Part shown: positions 2,178-56,278 of the stretch, in pieces | How the letters are laid out: each line of letters begins with the position of its first letter | Position numbering within the stretch: position 1 is the stretch's first letter | Assembly: GCA_964291285.2 (NCBI GenBank) | Contig: OZ219787.1 | Location: forward strand, 1,280,001-1,344,000 | Source of the DNA: Alphaproteobacteria bacterium | Lineage (GTDB): Bacteria; Pseudomonadota; Alphaproteobacteria; Bin95 | Length of the DNA stretch: 64,000 nucleotides | Direction of reading: 5' to 3' | The notes under the pieces: model-generated | The model's database searches: none | Seen by the model: the letters and a program-made list of their open reading frames with translations, nothing else | What the model was told of the DNA's origin: nothing | Translations under genes and position numbers: made by a program

Positions 2178-3646
2178 GGGCCCGGCTCCCCGTCCGCGTT
2201 GCCGGCGGGCCGCGAGAGCGTGCGCGCCACGGCGTCGGCCCAGCGGGCGCGGCCGGGCGCGGGGTCGCCTCCGGGCTCGAACCGCCGCCCGGCGGGGCGC
2301 CCGGCATCGCGCGGGTCCGAGAACACGCCGGCGCCCAGGCCCGCCAGCACGGCCGCGCCCCAGGCCGTCGTCTCGGTGACGGCGGGGCGCTCCACGGTGA
2401 GGCCGGCGATGTCGGCGAGCCTCTGGGCGAACCAGTCATTGGCGCTCATCGCCCCGTCTATGCGGAGCAGCGCGGGTTCGAGGCCGTCGGCGGCGGCGGC
2501 GTCCAGCAGGTCGGCGGTCTGGTGCGCGGCGGCTTCGAGCGCGGCGCGCGCAAGCTCGGCCGGCCCCGTGTCGCGCGTCAGGCCGAAGAGCGCGCCGCGC
2601 GCCTCCGCATCCCACCAGGGCGCGCCCAGCCCGACGAAGGCCGGCACCATGACGACGCCGCTCCCGCCTGCGCGCTCCGCCAGCGCCTCCGTTTCCGCCG
2701 TGTCGGCGAGGATGCCGAGGCCGTCGCGCAGCCACTGCACCGCCGCGCCCGCGACGAACACCGCACCTTCGAGCGCGTATGTCGTCCGGCCGCCGAGGTC
2801 GAGCGCGACGGTGGTGAGCAGGCGGTGGCGGGAGGCCGCGGGCGCCTCGCCGGTATGCGCCAGCAGGAAGCAGCCGGTGCCGTAGGTGCTCTTGATGTCG
2901 CCCGCTTCCAGGCAGCCCTGGCCGAGGGTCGCCGCCTGCTGGTCGCCGGCCATGCCCGCAATCGGCACCGGCGCGCCCAGGATGTCCGTCACGCCGAAGC
3001 CGTCCGCATTGCCGCGCACCTCGGGCAGCACGGCTTCCGGGACCCGGAAGAGTTCGAGCAGGTCCGGGCTCCAGGCGCGTTTGCGGATGTCGAAAAGGCC
3101 GGTGCGCGAGGCGTTGGTCGCGTCGGTCGCATGGACGCGCCCGCCGGTCAGCCGCCAGGCGAGGAAGCTGTCCACCGTGCCGAAGGCGAGGTCGCGGCGC
3201 CCGCGCGCCCCGGGCAGCTCGTCCAGCAGCCAGGCGAGCTTGGTCGCGGAGAAATAGGGGTCGATCAGGAGGCCGCTCTGCTCCGTGACGAACGGCTCCA
3301 GCCCCTCGGCGCGGAGCCGGGCGCATTCCGGGGCCGTGCGGCGGTCCTGCCAGACGATGGCGTTGTGCAGGCAAGCGCCGCTCGCCCGGTCCCACAGCAG
3401 CGCCGTCTCGCGCTGGTTGGCGATGCCGATGGCGGCAGGCAGGTCGTCTCCGGCCGCCTCGCACAGCACGGCCACGCTCGCCTGCCAGATTTCCTCCGGG
3501 TCGTGCTCCACCAGGCCGTCCGCCGGGTAGATCTGGCGGAGTTCGCGCCGGGCCGTGCGGAGCGGCGCGCCGGCGGCGTCGAACAGGATCGCGCGGGTCG
3601 AGGTCGTGCCCTGGTCGAGCGCGAGCAGATGCGGGGCGGAGGCCAT
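2174..3646 (-). CDS. glpK: Glycerol kinase
   Basis: [56 protein letters not shown]. Confidence 0.92.
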
Positions 3647-3703: not shown

Positions 3704-4483
3704 ATGCCGCGTTTCGCCGCCAATCTCTCGATGCTGTTCACCGAACACGGGTTCCTGGACCGCTTCGACGCCGCCGCCAGGGTCGGCTTCAGGGCGGTCG
3801 AGTTCCTGTTCCCCTACGACTTCGCGCCGGAGGAGGTGGCGAGGGCGAAGGCGGATGCGGGCGTCGAGACCGTGCTGTTCAACATGCCGCCCGGCGACTG
3901 GGAGGCGGGCGAGCGCGGACTGGCGGCCGTGCCGGGACGCGAGGCGGCGTTCGCCGACGCGCTGGAAACAGCGGCGGCATGGGCCGGCGTGCTGGACAGC
4001 CCGCGCGTGCATGTCATGGCCGGCATTCCGGACGAAGGGGCGGAAGCCGACGCCGAGGCCGTCTATGTGGCGAACCTGAAACGCGCCGCCGCGCGGCTCG
4101 GCGCGCGCCACGTGTCCATCGAGCCCATCAACCGGCGGGACATTCCGGGTTTCTTCCTCAACCGCCAGGACGAGGCGCACCGTATCCGCGCCGCGGTCGG
4201 GGCGGAGACCGTCAAGGTGCAGATGGACCTCTACCACTGCCAGATCGTCGAGGGCGATGTCGCCATGCGGCTCCGCGAATGGCTGCCGGGCGGCGGCGTC
4301 GGCCACATGCAGATCGCCGGCGTGCCGGAGCGCCACGAACCCTCGGTCGGCGAGATGCACTACCCCTACCTGTTCAGGCTGATCGACGAGCTCGGCTATG
4401 AAGGCTGGATCGGCTGCGAATACCGCCCGCGTGCCGGCACCGTCGAAGGGCTCGGCTGGGCCAAGGCCTACGGCATCGGCTGA
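3704..4483 (+). CDS. Hydroxypyruvate / 2-oxo-tetronate isomerase (Hyi/OtnI family)
   Basis: [62 protein letters not shown]. Confidence 0.9.
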
Positions 4484-31088: not shown

Positions 31089-31769
31089 TCAGCCCCGGGC
31101 CCCGAAGACGGCGCTGCCCACCCGGACATGCGTCGCGCCGAAGCGGATCGCGGTCTCGAAATCGGCGCTCATGCCCATCGACAGCCCGGCCAGCCCGTTG
31201 CGCCGGGCGGCCTCACGCAGGAAGGCGAAATGCGGCCCCGGCAGGTCTTCGGCCGGCGGAATGCACATCAGCCCGACCACCTCGAGGCCGTATTCCGCCC
31301 GGCAACGGTCGAGGAAGCCGTCCAGCGCGGCCGGCGCCACGCCGCCCTTCTGCGGCTCCTCCCCGGTATTGACCTGCACGAAGCATGGAAGCGCCCTGCC
31401 TGCCCGCTCGAACTCCCGCGCCAGCGCCGCCGCCAGGCGGGGCCGGTCCACCGTTTCGATGACGTCGAAGAGGCTCACGGCGGCCCGGACCTTGTTGGTC
31501 TGCAGGCCGCCGATCAGGTGCAGCGCGATGTTGGGGAACCGCTCCCTGAAGGCCGGCCAGCGCGCCTCGGCTTCCTGCACGCGGTTCTCGCCGAAGAGCC
31601 GGTGCCCCGCCGCCAGCGCGCTTTCGATCCGCCCCTCCGGCTGCAGCTTCGACACGGCCACCAGCCGGACGGAGGAAGCGTCGCGCCCGGCAGCCTCCGC
31701 AGCCGCCTCGATGCGGCCCGTCACTGCCGCCAGGCGGCCGGCGGCCTCCCGATCTTCCGTACGTTCCAT
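31089..31769 (-). CDS. yggS: PLP homeostasis protein
   Basis: LVAVSK, FGENRVQE, HLIGGLQTNK, GLMCIPP, LSMGMS.D, HVRVGSAVFG. Confidence 0.93.
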   Translation of the reverse strand: MERTEDREAAGRLAAVTGRIEAAAEAAGRDASSVRLVAVSKLQPEGRIESALAAGHRLFGENRVQEAEARWPAFRERFPNIALHLIGGLQTNKVRAAVSLFDVIETVDRPRLAAALAREFERAGRALPCFVQVNTGEEPQKGGVAPAALDGFLDRCRAEYGLEVVGLMCIPPAEDLPGPHFAFLREAARRNGLAGLSMGMSADFETAIRFGATHVRVGSAVFGARG

Positions 31770-31912
31770 CCCGGAACGCTACCAAAGCGTGCGGTCCGGG
31801 TTAAGCCGCGCCGGTCGGCCGGTCTTGCTCTCCACCGGCCTGCGGCAGTATCGGGCGCCGGGGATGGCTCCGTTTTGCGGGGGCAACAAAGGGGTGCGAC
31901 AATGTGTTCATG

Positions 31913-32155
31913 AAATTTAGGTAATATTTCTCTATTTCCGGTCTGAAGCAGGAAAACCCGTGATATGATGGGTTCGAGGTAGGCGGCATCCGGAGCCGCT
32001 TCCCGCCCGCGCCGGCCCGGTGCGGAACGACCCCGATTCAGCCGACAGACGAGGTGCGCCCTGCGCCTGCCTCGCGCACGCGCAATCAGGCGCGCGAACC
32101 GCGCCGGCGCAATGGCGCGCCCGCGCCCGCCCGCGATTGCGCGCGAATAAGGGTC
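31913..32155 (+). other. Conserved non-coding block, copy 1 (AT-rich box, extended -10, GC-rich leader)
   Basis: Homologous to the reverse complement of 47881-48144; box AAATTTAGGTAATATTTC at 31913, TGnTATGAT at 31961-31969, leader 31981-32155. Confidence 0.7.
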
Positions 32156-32271
32156 GCTCCCAAGCCGGGACGGCATGGCCGTCAAACCGAAGCGTAACCA
32201 AAGGGGATTATCCGTTTGACTAAATATCAGCCCGTCTCCTAGCCTGTGCTCTTCACAGCGGGAGATCAAGC

Positions 32272-33652
32272 ATGGCGAGGAAATCTGATAGGGTAGAAGG
32301 CAGGCGACGCAGCGGCGACGCAGCGGCGACGCAGCGGCGACGCAGCGGCGACGCAGCGGCGACGCAGCGGCGACGCAGCGGCGACGCAGGAAGCCAACTG
32401 GCGCAACCGCACCATCTGGACGCGCGACAATCTCCATGTCCTGAGAGGCATGAACAGCGCCACGGTCGATCTCATCTATCTCGACCCGCCCTTCAACTCC
32501 AACCGCACCTATAGCGCACCCATAGGCTCGGAGGCGGCCGGGGCTGCCTTCAAGGACTCATGGACCTTCGACGACGCGGACCGCGTCTATCTGGCACTGC
32601 TGCAAGAGCGTGACCCGACGACTTTCGCCATAATCGACGCGGCCCGGCTGGCGCACGGGCGCGGCATGGCGGCCTATCTCGGCATGATGGCGCAACGCCT
32701 CGTCGAAATGCGGCGTGTCCTGAAGCCGACCGGCAGCATCTATCTGCATTGTGACCCGTTCGCGTCGCATTATCTCAAGATGCTCATGGACGCGATTTTC
32801 GGACGCCTTAATCACCGGAACGAGATTATCTGGTGCTATACTGGCCCCGGCTCACCGCATATGCGCCAGTTCAACCGAAAGCACGATACAATCCACTGGT
32901 ATTCAGTCGGCGAGACATGGACCTTCAATGCCGACGCCGTGCGTATTCAGCACCATGGCAAGACCAAGGCGAATTTCAAAGACGGTTTGCGCGGTTCTGG
33001 ATTTATCGAGGGCGAATATGGGCTGACGGACGGCAAAGTCCCTGAAACATGGTGGCCGCAAGAGAAAGGAAATGGACTCGCCATAGCGCCCCGCCAAAAG
33101 GCGCAATATGTCGGCTATCCGACGCAGAAGCCGCTTGCCCTTCTGGACCGCATCATCAAGGCGTCGAGTAACGAGGGCGATGTCGTGCTGGACCCATTTT
33201 GCGGTTGCGCGACGGCCGCCGTGGCGGCGGAGCGGCTACAGCGCCAGTGGATCGGCATCGACATTTCCGCGAAGGCGGCCGAGCTCGTCACGACGCGCCT
33301 GCAAGGCATCCTCGACGAAATCCCGCTCTACAAGACCGGCGATGTTGTCCACAGGACGGACCAGCCGGGCCGCACGGACCTGGGAGACCTTCCCCACTAC
33401 CGGACGCACCTGGACTTGCTCTACGGCCAGCAGGAAGGCTTTTGCGGCGGTTGCGGGGAGCATTTCCGCAAGCGCAATCTGACGGTGGACCATATCGTCC
33501 CGCAAGCGCATGGCGGGACCGACCACCTTGAGAACCTTTGGCTGCTGTGCGGCGCCTGCAATTCGTCGAAGGGAACGCGCTCGCAAGAGCAATTCCTGAA
33601 AGAGCGTATGCAGAAGCGCGCCGCCCTGTTCCCGTGGCTGATAGAGGCGTGA
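32272..33652 (+). CDS. Beta-class N6/N4 DNA methyltransferase fused to a C-terminal HNH endonuclease; 5' end frameshifted at the repeat (open frame with a start only from 32450)
   Basis: IWTRDNLHVLRGM (upstream of ATG 32450), IYLDPPFNS, YLHCD, YPTQKP, VLDPFCGCAT; CGGC..VDHIVP..GG.DH..NL.LLC..CNSSKG. Confidence 0.88.
32303..32389 (+). repeat. 11-bp tandem repeat GGCGACGCAGC, about 8 copies
   Basis: Seven perfect units plus 10 of 11 bases of an eighth. Confidence 0.97.
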
Positions 33653-34621
33653 CTAGTATGGCCGCGCCCCGCTCGCCAGCCCGTTCTCGGCAATCAGCCG
33701 GGCGTAGGTCAGGCGCTTCCCGACCATGCCGGCCGCCAGTCCCGCCATTTGTGCCAGCGTCCCGGCTTCGCGGATGTTGTGCCGCCCGGCGAACTCCGCG
33801 ATGTAGCGGTGAAGGTGCTTCGGCGAGAACTTGTGATAGACGCCCTTGTGCGCCCGCTTCAACATGGCCCAGAAGCTCTCGATCCCGTTGGTATGCGCCT
33901 GCTGGCGGACATACTCGCCAGCGGAGTGATTGACCGCTTCATGCTGAAACCACACTTGCAGCGCCCGATAGACCGTCGCCTCGTCCGAATAGACCGTCGT
34001 GCCGATGCGGGCGTTGTGAGCGGCGAAGCCTGCCAGCGACGGCGCGTCCGCGTGCTGGACATGGCGGGCGCGAACCTGCTTCGTGCCCCGGTCCTTCACG
34101 CCAACGACAATGTCCTTGCCGACAGCGCCGCGACCCTCAAGGCTCTCCCGCTTCGCCTTGTGCATGTTCTTGCGCAGCCCGCCCAGATAGACCTCGTCCA
34201 CCTCTACCGGCCCGTCCATGGGCGGCTCGTCGTCGCGCTTGAAGGCTTCGCGGATGCGCTGGAGCATGAACCATGCGGTTGCCTGCCGGACGCCTATGTC
34301 CCGGCCCAGCTTCACGCTGGAGACGCCCTTGAGCGAAGTCAGGTGCAGGTAGATCGCCCAAACCCACTTGCGGAACGAGAGCTTGGACCGCTCCATGACG
34401 GTGCCGATGCGGACGCTGAAATGCCGCTTGCAGCCGGGGCAGTAGTAGGGCATCGGCGGGTTGCCGGTGCATTCAATCGTCTCGGTATGGCCGCAGCGCG
34501 GGCAATGGCGACCGTTCGGCCAGACCTTCGCCTCAAACCATTCGCGGGCGCTTTCCTCGGTCGGGAACATCTCTCCCAACTCCATGATGGTCACGCCTTC
34601 GCGGTAGTGCTTGCCAGCCAT
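33653..34621 (-). CDS. IS1595 family transposase
   Basis: Zn ribbon CPRCG/CPGCKRHFS, KGVSS, AWFM, VEVDEVY, YSDE, VNHS, HTNGIESFW, HL.RY..EF. Confidence 0.95.
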   Translation of the reverse strand: MAGKHYREGVTIMELGEMFPTEESAREWFEAKVWPNGRHCPRCGHTETIECTGNPPMPYYCPGCKRHFSVRIGTVMERSKLSFRKWVWAIYLHLTSLKGVSSVKLGRDIGVRQATAWFMLQRIREAFKRDDEPPMDGPVEVDEVYLGGLRKNMHKAKRESLEGRGAVGKDIVVGVKDRGTKQVRARHVQHADAPSLAGFAAHNARIGTTVYSDEATVYRALQVWFQHEAVNHSAGEYVRQQAHTNGIESFWAMLKRAHKGVYHKFSPKHLHRYIAEFAGRHNIREAGTLAQMAGLAAGMVGKRLTYARLIAENGLASGARPY

Positions 34622-34717
34622 GACGGCCTCCGTTCCGACTGCTTGAGTCAGAATATGGGGACTCGCCGTCATTTAGTCAAGCGGATAATCCCCTAACCAA
34701 AGGAGCCGCCGCACCCC

Positions 34718-34852
34718 ATGCCCATCATCGACCCCTGGTCGCCGGAGAACATCGAACAGCGCCGCCGGGACAGCCTCGACTGGCTCCAGAGGGCCGGACC
34801 CTTCAATGCGCCCGGAGACGCGGACTTCGCCCCGGACCATGACAATACATGA
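34718..34852 (+). CDS. Putative 44-aa micro-ORF (MPIIDPWSPENIEQ...)
   Basis: RBS AAAGGAG upstream; stop supplied by a CATGACA repeat; no family recognised. Confidence 0.35.
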   Translation: MPIIDPWSPENIEQRRRDSLDWLQRAGPFNAPGDADFAPDHDNT

Positions 34853-34864
34853 CATTCCATGACA
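34838..34864 (+). repeat. CATGACA x3 at 10-bp period
   Basis: CATGACAATACATGACATTCCATGACA. Confidence 0.9.
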
Positions 34865-35047
34865 TCCACGGTGGAGAGGACGATCCCGCCGCCCCGCGCA
34901 CGCGCGGGCGCGCATTATGCGCAGGCGCGGGACGCTCTTCCGGCAACAGGGGCGTCCGGAACCACGGCCCGACCAAGGAGGCTGCAATGCCTTGCGAACG
35001 ACCGGAGCGGAGACCGGCCTGGAGTGGGCCCCTTGGGTCGGACAGTT

Positions 35048-35842
35048 TCACGCGGCATTTTTGACAGGGTTGCGTTGTTGTTTCTCCTCGAAGCGGTTTG
35101 GGCTCAGATATCCGAGGGCGGAGTGCAGGCGTCTGTGGTTGTAGCTGTCGATGAAGCGTGGCAGTTGCCTTGCGACGTCATCGGCGGTCTCGAAGGCCAT
35201 GGGATAGACGCCTTCGACCTTCAGGGTTTTCATGAAGCTCTCCATCATGGCGTTGTCGTAGGGGTTGGCTCGTCGTCCCATGGAGCCGACCATCCCGTGT
35301 TTGTCGAGCCGGGTCCGGTAGGCATGGGCGGCGTATTGCGAGCCCCTGTCGGAGTGGTGGATGCAGCCGGGCTGAGGGCTTCGGTTCCCGATCGCCTTGT
35401 CGAGCGCCGCGAGCGTCAGGCGCGCGTCGATGCGTTGCCCGAGCGCGTAGCCGACAATGCGGCGCGACCAGGCGTCCATGACCGCCGCCAGATAGACGAA
35501 GCCGTCCAGGATGGCGATGTAGGTCAGGTCGGCGACCCAGAGCCGGTTCGGGCCCTCGACCTCGCAGTCCCGGGACCGGTCCGGGAAGACCGGCCCGTCG
35601 TGGCCGCTGTCCGTGGTGGCGACAAAGCGGCGCTTGCGCGGCGGCTGCAGGGCGTGTTCGCGCATCAGCCGCCTGACCTTCTTGTGGTTGACGGTCCGGC
35701 CCCGGTGGCGAAGTTCCGCCTGCATGCGCCGCCAGCCATAGGCCTCGAACTCGTCCTTGATCTCGTGCATCGCCTCGACCAGGGCGGTGTCGTCGACCGG
35801 GCTCTGCGGCTCGCGGTAACAGGTGGAGCGCGCGATCCCCAT
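35048..35842 (-). CDS. IS3 transposase OrfB (DDE integrase core)
   Basis: YGWRR, NHKKVRRLM, WVADLTY, HHSDRGSQY, DNAMMESF, RRLHSALGY.SP. Confidence 0.93.
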   Translation of the reverse strand: MGIARSTCYREPQSPVDDTALVEAMHEIKDEFEAYGWRRMQAELRHRGRTVNHKKVRRLMREHALQPPRKRRFVATTDSGHDGPVFPDRSRDCEVEGPNRLWVADLTYIAILDGFVYLAAVMDAWSRRIVGYALGQRIDARLTLAALDKAIGNRSPQPGCIHHSDRGSQYAAHAYRTRLDKHGMVGSMGRRANPYDNAMMESFMKTLKVEGVYPMAFETADDVARQLPRFIDSYNHRRLHSALGYLSPNRFEEKQQRNPVKNAA

Positions 35843-36192
35843 CAGTCGGCATCCTTCGGCAACGGAGAGGCCTCGGGGCCGGCGATCACGGACATGGGCG
35901 CGCGCCTCGACCGCCGTCCTTGCCGCAAAGCCCCCTTTAGGAACTCCAGCTCCGCGGCCTGCCGGCCGACCAGCCGTTCGAGCGTCGCGATCCGGGCCTC
36001 ATACGCCCGGAGCGTGTCAGCCGCCTCGGCCTCCTCATCGAAGGCGCCGGCCTCGTATTTCTCCAGCCACAGCCGGATCAGGGTGCGAGACAGGTCATGA
36101 CGGCGGGCCAGACCGTAAAACGTCTCGCCTGCCAGATACTCCTCAACGACCTGGCGCTTGAAGGCCATGCTGTGCGTGCGGTGCTTCCTCAT
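35842..36192 (-). CDS. IS3 transposase OrfA (HTH)
   Basis: HSMAFKRQVV..LARRHDLSR.LIR.W, leucine-zipper-like LERLVGRQ..ELEFLK; stop overlaps the orfB start. Confidence 0.88.
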   Translation of the reverse strand: MRKHRTHSMAFKRQVVEEYLAGETFYGLARRHDLSRTLIRLWLEKYEAGAFDEEAEAADTLRAYEARIATLERLVGRQAAELEFLKGALRQGRRSRRAPMSVIAGPEASPLPKDAD

Positions 36193-36273
36193 CGGCGTCG
36201 ATCCTTCCAATGACCGCGCACCTGTCAATTTCCTACAACAAAACTGTCCGAGACCAGGGGCCCACTCCAGCCC

Positions 36274-36300
36274 CATGACAAAACATGACATTCCATGACA
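36274..36300 (+). repeat. CATGACA x3 at 10-bp period
   Basis: CATGACAAAACATGACATTCCATGACA, 1 mismatch to the 34838 copy. Confidence 0.9.
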
Positions 36301-36612
36301 TGGCGCGAGGGAGTCGCTGTCGCCCCCATCCGTCGCCCCCAGGCGGAGAAGCCGGGGCCTCAAGCGGCCGGACCTCCGCTGCATGGAGGACCCGGCTCGC
36401 CCTGCGGGCGTCCGGGGCGACGAAAAGGGGGGCGGAGACCGGCCGGGACAGCTTCCAACCGGCGGCTGTCGGTATAGTTCCAAGCGGGTTGCGAGTCTGC
36501 GGGTGCTCTTGCTATGTTGGAGGACTGACGGGTTTGGAGGCTCGTTCAGGCGTCAGGCCGGCGCAGGTTGCCGGTCCAAGGGGATTCAAACAACAATCAT
36601 GGGAGTGCAAAC

Positions 36613-44857: not shown

Positions 44858-44933
<76 letters not shown>

Positions 44934-55903: not shown

Positions 55904-56068
55904 ACCCGGAGCGGCGGGAGCCGGAAGGAACGGGACGCATGACTATCGCGGAGAAGTTTCCCTGACGCGCCGCCGCAGTGCGGCGATGGGATGGATCGTT
56001 GTGAAGCGCCGCCCCGGCGGCCAACAGGCGAGGTGCGCGCCGAATCCGGAAAACCGGTTTTGGCAATC

Positions 56069-56278
56069 CGATCAGCTTGCCGGCGAATCGCCGCCCCGGG
56101 AGGCCCCGGCGACCCCGCCCGGAGCCGGGCGGATTTTCGATCGGGTTGCCGAGGGGCCGCCGCCCCGGGAGGTCCTGGCGGTCCCGTCCGCCTCCGGGTC
56201 GGCATTTCGATCAGGTTGCCGGCGGGCCGCCGTCCTGGGAGGCGCCGGTTGTCCGGGCCCGCTTCCGGTTCGGTATCT
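56069..56278. repeat. Three degenerate tandem repeats of 69-70 bp
   Basis: Core CGATCRGSTTGCCG..CGCCGYCCYGGGAGG at 56069, 56138 and 56208. Confidence 0.75.

Follow-up and report, generated by a model that had tools for sequence, protein, structure and literature searches.

The stretch of DNA analysed here, called the window throughout, comprises 64 kb (64,000 nucleotides) of an alphaproteobacterial assembly (GCA_964291285.2, contig OZ219787.1, positions 1,280,001 to 1,344,000) and contains an insertion sequence (IS) of the IS1595 family that carries, besides its transposase, a gene for a fusion of a DNA methyltransferase and an HNH nuclease. An 11-nt tandem array lies in the 5' coding region of this passenger gene, where it probably acts as a phase-variation tract, which would make the element a transposable contingency locus that is currently OFF.

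The array and the reading frame

The array is located on the forward strand at positions 32303 to 32389 and consists of 7.9 perfect copies of the unit GGCGACGCAGC, seven of them full units, with 100% matches and no indels according to Tandem Repeats Finder (TRF). It is the sole perfect short-unit array of the entire window. TRF returned three rows scoring 60 or more, of which the two others are imperfect with units of 24 and 69 nt, and a two-unit pattern of GGCGACGCAGC matches seven times in the window, compared with 0.01 matches expected from shuffles. Upstream of the array, the ribosome-binding site (RBS) GGGAG at 32260 to 32264 (forward strand) is followed after a spacer of 7 nt by an ATG at 32272. 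In the present configuration the open reading frame (ORF) beginning there runs through the array from 32272 to 32514 on the forward strand and ends out of frame after 80 codons, with its stop codon at 32512 to 32514. The methyltransferase frame itself is closed upstream by a TAG that can be read in the sequence at 32294 to 32296 on the same strand, and from this TAG to position 32450 it is open and contains neither ATG nor GTG nor TTG. After the TAG the open methyltransferase-HNH frame comprises 451 codons (32297 to 33652, forward strand, repeat-encoded part included), and the internal ATG at 32450 opens a 400-aa ORF to 33652, which is the one that gene callers would report.

The array thus stands between ATG 32272 and an otherwise intact methyltransferase-HNH reading frame of 418 codons. 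The distance from ATG 32272 to ATG 32450 is 178 nt, which equals 1 modulo 3 and puts the frame off by one. When the ORF from ATG 32272 was recomputed for 1 to 13 full units, products of 441 to 474 aa were obtained only at 2, 5, 8 and 11 units, and the other unit counts led to products of 42 to 102 aa. As the window has seven units, one unit gained or two units lost restores the frame. The array is free of stop codons in all frames and encodes an 11-residue periodic linker, and its single strand folds into a hairpin at -40.1 kcal/mol (z = -5.15). Features that characterize a contingency locus are found here, namely a perfect tandem repeat within a reading frame, a unit length not divisible by three, and a unit number that decides between a full-length and a truncated product in the recomputed ORFs. 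Only a change in copy number can connect ATG 32272 to the conserved body of the protein. An earlier interpretation made from the letters alone (the sequence-only reading) had claimed the array with its RBS and ATG, the shift by one, the restoration by one unit gained or two lost, the stop-free repeat and the TAG without any start codon after it, and had called the gene currently OFF; the TRF call, the direct reading and the frame computation, in which seven full units give an 80-residue out-of-frame peptide, agree with it in all these points. A minus-strand ORF spanning the array (31721 to 32437) has no Pfam match and crosses the element boundary, and it was rejected as a gene. A scan of 32000 to 34900 for promoters and terminators gave none upstream of ATG 32272, being uninformative for a genome of 68% GC, and one promoter-like site in the right inverted repeat of the element, facing the transposase.

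The IS1595-family element

The gene, its start codon and the array are all held by an element of 2,491 bp (32203 to 34693). Identical 8-bp target-site duplications TAACCAAA, read directly, flank it at 32195 to 32202 on the left and at 34694 to 34701 on the right. Its ends are formed by a left inverted repeat (IRL, 32203 to 32239, forward strand), which begins with GGGGATTATCCG, and a right inverted repeat (IRR, 34657 to 34693, reverse strand), which contains the start codon of the transposase. The arms are about 38 nt long and 82% complementary (tool coordinates 32202 to 32239 and 34657 to 34694), and the element ends were set at 32203 and 34693, one base inside the tool's arms. A 23-nt end sequence matches solely at the two ends of the element, with 0 matches expected by chance. 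The 339-aa DDE transposase is encoded on the reverse strand at 33653 to 34672 (Pfam DDE_Tnp_IS1595, 1.1e-38, and Zn_ribbon_IS1595, 5.4e-08) and reaches 183.3 bits with NCBIfam transpos_IS1595, for which the cut-off is 75. It is convergent with the methyltransferase-HNH gene, and the stop codons of both genes abut. All four hallmarks of IS1595 are present, i.e., the DDE transposase, the zinc ribbon, the GGGG... inverted repeats and the 8-bp duplication, and the gene, lying between these repeats and duplications, is rightly termed transposable, as the sequence-only reading had done.

Measured from the element's left end, the array extends from 100 to 187 nt inward, and subterminal repeats occur in some transposons. 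It might therefore be asked whether the array serves the IS in cis, e.g., as a set of subterminal transposase-binding repeats, its position at the 5' end of the gene being incidental. This is extremely improbable, because no copy of the unit GGCGACGCAGC is present near the right end or elsewhere in the window, related elements with the same IRL have an unrelated 8-nt unit (locus L014) or a C-tract at this place, and most family members have no array at all.

The methyltransferase-HNH protein

The passenger gene encodes a predicted beta-class N6/N4 DNA methyltransferase domain at 32465 to 33286 on the forward strand (Pfam N6_N4_Mtase, E = 5.5e-46), which spans residues 57 to 330 of the 451-aa translation, and PADLOC assigns the protein to MTase_III (3.3e-47). 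EcoP15I Mod is among the matches both by sequence and by fold. The best Foldseek matches are M.BceJIV, CcrM, M.RsrI and MboIIA, the first three with E values from 1e-17 to 5e-16. Conservation was judged from an alignment of 78 sequences, namely the window protein and 77 full-length homologues, and the AlphaFold2 model computed on these sequences has a mean predicted local distance difference test score (pLDDT) of 84.7 and a predicted template modelling score (pTM) of 0.87. The DPPF motif D32-P33-P34-F35 is invariant and lies N-terminal to the motif for binding S-adenosylmethionine (SAM), which is the order of a beta-class enzyme. The C-terminal HNH nuclease domain at 33443 to 33604 on the forward strand (Pfam HNH 5.4e-14, HNH_5 4e-13) contains two CxxC pairs and the D-H...N...N residues; C352, C355, D367, N382, C387 and N391 are invariant and H368 is nearly so among the 78 sequences. 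One chain therefore holds a nuclease and a methyltransferase domain with catalytic residues that are intact by sequence, and no protein among the listed PDB matches, whether found by sequence or by fold, joins a methyltransferase with an HNH domain.

The central region of the gene (32750 to 33120, approximately codons 120 to 240) shows only 33-50% identity to L014, the closest genomic locus, compared with 88-97% in the flanks, and the two related loci L025 and L041 likewise share similar flanks and a divergent centre. This suggests that the target-recognition domain has been swapped between relatives, so that these would differ in their methylation specificity.

The N-terminal segment and the start codon

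Between the array and the internal ATG 32450 lies the segment NWRNRTIWTRDNLHVLRG (32396 to 32449, forward strand). That a conserved N-terminal segment would be found upstream of 32450 had been claimed from the letters alone, and this was borne out when the N-termini of homologues were checked. The protein family is large, with at least 8,000 candidates, all at E of 0.001 or below. Among 121 proteins, i.e., the window's own ORF and 120 listed homologues, 97 contain the equivalent segment, which in homologues typically reads M-x(2-4)-NW.NRT.WTGDNL..MRGMNS, whereas 22 were called from internal methionines and two are fragments. The 22 truncated calls and the two fragments were left out of the 78-sequence alignment, as were 19 further full-length homologues, the latter chiefly because they covered little of the query or had a long extension at the N-terminus. 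In the alignment the invariant positions are D13, R19 and G20, with N3, T8, W10, T11 and L15 close to invariant. All these positions precede the internal methionine at position 21, and a start at ATG 32450 omits 20 residues, in which the AlphaFold2 model places a strand (residues 8 to 11) and a helix (residues 14 to 20) in a block with a pLDDT of 95-98.

These observations bear on the question whether the gene is simply expressed as it is, with initiation at ATG 32450 or at some non-canonical codon, or with +1 ribosomal frameshifting in the array, in which case no gating would exist. The 400-aa ORF from ATG 32450 does encode the HNH domain and the complete Pfam methyltransferase domain, 22 of the 121 proteins are given by gene callers in such a truncated form, and the array contains the rare arginine codons AGG and CGA in the frame of ATG 32272. 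Nevertheless, we consider expression of this kind very unlikely. The 20 omitted residues include the invariant D13, R19 and G20 as well as the confidently modelled strand and helix. The sequence AGAGG ends 1 nt before ATG 32450, which is too close for an RBS and leaves this ATG without a usable one. Neither a known frameshift signal nor an RNA family was found at the array, the only Rfam match across the whole window being a tRNA gene. Moreover, the database protein P0017, called from an internal methionine and the sole truncated protein that was traced to its DNA, is the gene of L014, which has an out-of-frame array upstream, and its truncation is therefore an artefact of gene calling. Truncated database entries can thus hide out-of-frame arrays. 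At L014 the same IRL, an RBS (GGGAGG) and an ATG are found, and a repeat array occupies the identical position between TCTGATA and GAAGCCAACTGG. The homologue P0006, which is in frame, begins with MARKS, as does the ORF from ATG 32272. Judging from start codon, RBS and frame arithmetic, ATG 32272 would be the start that is actually used.

Tracts at the 5' end of related genes

A scan of genome contigs gave 505 relatives, and the best 80 of these 505 loci were compared, 77 of which yielded 80 N-termini. All 80 loci originate from metagenome-assembled genomes and span Pseudomonadota, Chloroflexota, Poribacteria, Acidobacteriota, Planctomycetota and others, many of the taxa presumably being associates of marine sponges. 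Most N-termini are free of repeats and have their ATG 1 to 6 codons ahead of the NW motif, while a subset without an in-frame start has a perfect tract adjoining the conserved segment instead. With relaxed criteria, 10 of the 80 N-termini contain a frame-shifting tract at the same position as in the window. An 8-nt unit is repeated 8.4 times in L014 (GGCAGTCC) and 5.6 times in L043 (GACAGTCC), and L025 and L041, both from one genome, have 2.8 and 1.9 copies of 11-nt units that differ in one base from the rotated unit of the window. The remaining tracts are C-tracts of C8 to C14, namely C13 and C14 in L033 and L034 of one genome, C10 in L029, C9 and C11 in L001, and C8 in L050 and in the second gene of L025. 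Hence, including the 7.9 copies of the window, the unit number differs among homologous loci for the 8-nt as well as the 11-nt repeats, and among copies in one genome for the C-tract.

By the strict repeat criteria, which are those of a published survey of Type III mod genes (PMC5909438), the 703 kb of loci contain 48 frame-shifting repeats, seven of which fall within the 8.5 kb of 5' target windows of 106 nt each. From the remaining 695 kb only 0.50 would be expected there, which corresponds to an approximately 14-fold enrichment (Poisson P = 1e-6, or P = 1.7e-4 when counted as five independent loci). Trinucleotide repeats are absent from the 5' windows, though they account for 382 of the 434 repeats in the loci, and the only two arrays of at least 40 nt in the 703 kb are both at the 5' site. 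In the protein data, the N-termini of P0028 and P0014 contain 7-residue periodic peptides, exactly as 7-nt units would yield when read in three frames, and P0122 and P0006 resemble in-frame alleles in which the 8-nt unit is present approximately 3.5 times, as far as the peptides tell. In L025 a perfect 20-nt tandem duplication that includes RBS and ATG (at about 3924 to 3963) directly precedes the 11-nt repeat. The sequence-only reading had called the repeat unit unusually long. This stands in relation to the published mod survey, which in the part covered here analysed units of 1-9 nt (PMC5909438), but not in relation to the family, where 8- and 11-nt units recur, so that this unit length characterizes the family and is no isolated case.

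Apart from the 5' tracts, G-tracts of G9 to G12 lie within the bodies of homologous genes (L002, 1916 to 1927; L016, 5097 to 5107; L021, 4456 to 4464; L036, 4412 to 4420), and L012 has a G22 tract (3557 to 3578) about 430 nt upstream of a homologous methyltransferase gene; these are possible additional hypermutable sites.

The comparison also helps to judge whether the out-of-frame unit count in the window could have arisen as an artefact of assembly or consensus calling, or could be what a mixed population with an in-frame main allele gave as its consensus. The window probably stems from an assembled genome, assemblers can collapse or expand repeats, and homopolymer tracts such as C13 and C14 of the relatives are error-prone. 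However, any long read and most short-read pairs far exceed the 87 nt of the array, which is perfect with clean and unique flanks, and independent assemblies show out-of-frame 8-nt arrays at the same place (L014, L043). An artefact is therefore highly improbable.

Phase, gene integrity and selection

Three of the tracts are in frame (L033, L029, L001) and seven are out of frame, to which the window is to be added. The two copies in one genome differ in phase, with C13 in frame in L033 and C14 out of frame in L034. Within the family some genes are genuinely truncated (L028, L077). All eight out-of-frame genes including the window, however, have ORFs that are intact through the HNH domain, with 402 to 493 codons. 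The ratio of nonsynonymous to synonymous substitution rates (Ka/Ks) is 0.18 between the window and L014 (synonymous divergence dS 1.1) and 0.10 between the window and L001, with dS at approximately 1.1-1.2, and the array is 100% pure although the gene flanking it has a dS of about 1. In a tree of the 73 intact genes (73 rows), the window groups with L001, L014 and L029 in a clade with a Shimodaira-Hasegawa-like approximate likelihood ratio test (SH-aLRT) value of 100, and all four members have a 5' tract, of three kinds. The presence of tracts requires at least six changes on this tree.

An alternative that has to be weighed against these data is that the gene is dead or silenced, i.e., that the linker tolerates insertions and slippage has permanently inactivated a costly passenger, which would make the repeat a mutational hot spot and not a switch. 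Counting the window, eight of the 11 alleles with a repeat are out of frame, L028 and L077 are real pseudogenes, the transposase adjoining the gene of L014 is reduced to a 54-residue remnant, and protein searches did not return an in-frame allele of the window's array, all of which would suit such a scenario. It is nevertheless unlikely. Inactivation is at odds with the integrity of all eight out-of-frame genes and with a Ka/Ks of 0.10-0.18 at a dS of about 1. Tolerance alone predicts triplet units, but none of the seven strict repeats at the site is a triplet, in contrast to the great majority of repeats in the loci. Furthermore, the arrays are 100% pure, and the clade of the window has kept a 5' tract in every member while the type of tract turned over.

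The reading as a switchable gene, which had been proposed from the letters, thus stands with respect to frame gating, mobility and the frame-shifting repeats that relatives have at the same site in both phases, whereas a second allele of the array itself was not found. Several points weigh against it. A whole-element megablast against a plasmid collection gave no match, the array of the window is absent from the best 80 of the 505 genome loci, a search with the N-terminus (residues 1 to 75 of the open frame; 897 hits) showed the 11-residue repeat in none of the best 120, and a protein search with the 80-aa leader ORF gave 1,153 candidates, none of them significant, and hence no relative. Slippage is generally expected to be rarer for units of 11 nt than for those of 1-5 nt, and with fewer than three units, as in L025 and L041, it should be slow. 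The C13/C14 pair comes from a metagenome-assembled genome and differs by 1 nt in a homopolymer, for which a consensus error could be responsible. A ratio of seven out-of-frame tracts among ten, plus the window, fits random phase, in which two thirds would be OFF, and fits inactivation equally. The tree on which the tract changes were counted was built from every column kept, those of the recognition region among them, and was rooted only at its midpoint. Regarding the enzyme, the SAM-binding motif at 33200 to 33215 (residues 268 to 275 of the 420-aa protein) reads D-P-F-C-G-C-A-T, so that FCGCA replaces FxGxG with alanine for the second glycine, and this is invariant in the 78 family members; the enzyme activities are deduced solely from the domains. 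In the plasmid collection a tblastn search returned 19 records, none of which reached 80% query coverage or contained the HNH part, so that this collection offers no full-length or annotated relative.

A proposed mechanism

If the array is a phase-variation tract, translation would start at ATG 32272 behind GGGAG, and the ribosome would read through the stop-free array, producing the periodic linker. The conserved body, consisting of the N-terminal strand and helix, the DPPF methyltransferase core, the variable recognition region and the HNH nuclease, would be reached only if the number of full units equals 2 modulo 3, and the assembled allele with its seven units would give the 80-residue peptide and be OFF. 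Replication slippage or unequal exchange in the perfect, hairpin-prone array would add or remove units and thereby toggle a fraction of the cells; slippage is suggested by the purity of the array despite saturated synonymous divergence and by the strong single-strand hairpin. Since switch and gene both lie inside the inverted repeats, they would move together with the element, provided that it is still mobile. In the ON state the product is most likely an enzyme with two functions, methylation of a specific DNA motif and, through its HNH domain, the capacity to cleave DNA, as predicted from the domains, and it may act as a single-chain restriction-modification-like or epigenetic module. Such switching would presumably be advantageous to the element or to its host.

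Neighbouring genes and related architectures

Immediately to the right of the IS1595 element lies an IS3-family element on the reverse strand (35048 to 36483) with an ORF for an rve integrase core (35048 to 35842) and an HTH_Tnp_1 ORF (35842 to 36483), and the region is therefore a small cluster of insertion sequences. The tRNA gene mentioned above is located on the forward strand at 44858 to 44930, and an imperfect 69-nt tandem repeat with 2.7 copies and 74% matches is found at 56062 to 56248.

An IS1595-like transposase was found within 4 kb in 35 of the 80 loci. In 28 of these 35 it precedes the methyltransferase-HNH gene and has the same orientation, mostly ending within approximately 100 nt of the gene start, and the convergent layout of the window recurs in L014, L015 and L028. 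The observation of a neighbouring transposase covers L002, L006-L013, L018, L019, L021, L023, L024, L031, L035 and L036, and also L041, L045, L047, L050, L052, L055, L064, L069, L070, L073 and L076. Up to five identical copies occur per genome (L009-L011, L073), and L032 (N-termini at 4007 and 5325) and L044 (3970 and 5567) each have two methyltransferase-HNH genes in tandem. The C13/C14 pair belongs to two copies of a 1.4-kb transposase-less element in one genome (L033, 3884 to 5287; L034, 3883 to 5287), which are 98.7% identical, have terminal inverted repeats of about 40 nt and carry the methyltransferase-HNH gene as their only gene. From its sequence this element looks like a non-autonomous IS derivative.

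Comparison with known systems

The phase-variable methyltransferases known so far are for the most part encoded by chromosomal Type I and Type III genes, with units of 1-5 nt, in pathogens that are host-adapted. Siguier et al., in the 2009 paper that founded the IS1595 family, reportedly included members with passenger genes. Type IIG enzymes have an N-terminal PD-(D/E)xK nuclease, a gamma-class methyltransferase and a poly-G tract, whereas in the window protein a beta-class methyltransferase precedes the HNH domain, and cleavage is predicted from the domains alone. One of the Type IIG enzymes is the phase-variable fused restriction-modification enzyme Cj0031 of Campylobacter jejuni, encoded by cj0031, with which the window protein shares a nuclease and a methyltransferase in one polypeptide that is gated by a repeat, so that both activities would go on and off together (PMC13076061; this and the following comparisons refer to the covered parts of the cited papers).

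With those mod genes of Type III systems that undergo phase variation the window gene shares a beta-class adenine or cytosine methyltransferase, a tract within the coding sequence whose unit is not a multiple of three, conserved 5' and 3' parts around a divergent central recognition region, and tracts of independent origin across lineages (PMC5909438). Unlike these, it has a fused HNH domain and lies inside an insertion sequence, no res-like gene is present in the element or its flanks, and its sole neighbour within the element is the transposase. Without a res gene this is no Type III system, and membership in Type III restriction-modification (Mod/Res) was rejected despite the homology to Mod. 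The 8- and 11-nt units, as well as the hosts, which are uncultured environmental bacteria, likewise set the family apart from the units of 1-9 nt of the Type III survey (PMC5909438).

As an insertion sequence the element resembles ISApl4, an IS1595-family member of 712 bp with GGGG... inverted repeats and 8-bp repeats, in its DDE transposase with the IS1595 zinc ribbon, its GGGG... ends and its 8-bp duplication, which leans toward A/T (PMC12561309). It differs from ISApl4 (712 bp; PMC12561309) in its length of 2,491 bp, because it carries a passenger gene of 1.4 kb with a switch of its own. Restriction-modification and orphan methyltransferase genes have also been described as transposon-like mobile units (Furuta, Abe and Kobayashi 2010; PMC2853133). 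The window element is similar to these units in that inverted repeats bound a methyltransferase gene and an 8-bp target duplication is present, whereas the units in the passages covered have neither a repeat-tract switch nor a fused methyltransferase-HNH (PMC2853133). In the open-access library that was searched, no paper was found on a methyltransferase-HNH gated by a repeat or on phase variation of an IS1595 passenger gene, and the covered parts of PMC9296519 and PMC11410982 contain nothing on this element. The element is likely a mobile contingency locus that in its way of working resembles a phase-variable mod gene or a phase-variable fused restriction-modification enzyme, and it would add a variant to the known kind of phase-variable methyltransferases.

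Implications

If the array is indeed a switch, an insertion sequence can carry a repeat-gated methyltransferase, and switch and enzyme would move and multiply together. Units of 8 and 11 nt would then act as switches, the longer of which would be missed by surveys limited to units of up to 9 nt, and the N-terminally truncated proteins of gene callers (22 of 121) conceal both the true start and the switch. The cargo would be an uncharacterised methyltransferase-HNH fusion, maybe a restriction-modification system in one protein, and for such a protein being OFF on arrival would solve the problem that a nuclease faces when it enters a genome that is not yet methylated. Phase variation of methyltransferases would also extend to uncultured environmental and symbiotic bacteria of several phyla.

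We further put forward, as a tentative idea that we regard as possible rather than probable, that the window represents a wider, hitherto undescribed phenomenon. In it, a large family of methyltransferase-HNH modules, either IS1595-borne or transposase-less and bounded by inverted repeats, would occur in several phyla of uncultured, largely marine bacteria, and every mobile element would possess a stochastic switch of its own for a self-contained methylase-nuclease. C-tracts and 7-, 8- and 11-nt units would have originated six times or more at one 5' site. Within this idea the element could enter a new genome that is unmethylated in a silent state and only afterwards switch defence, addiction or epigenetic states in individual cells.

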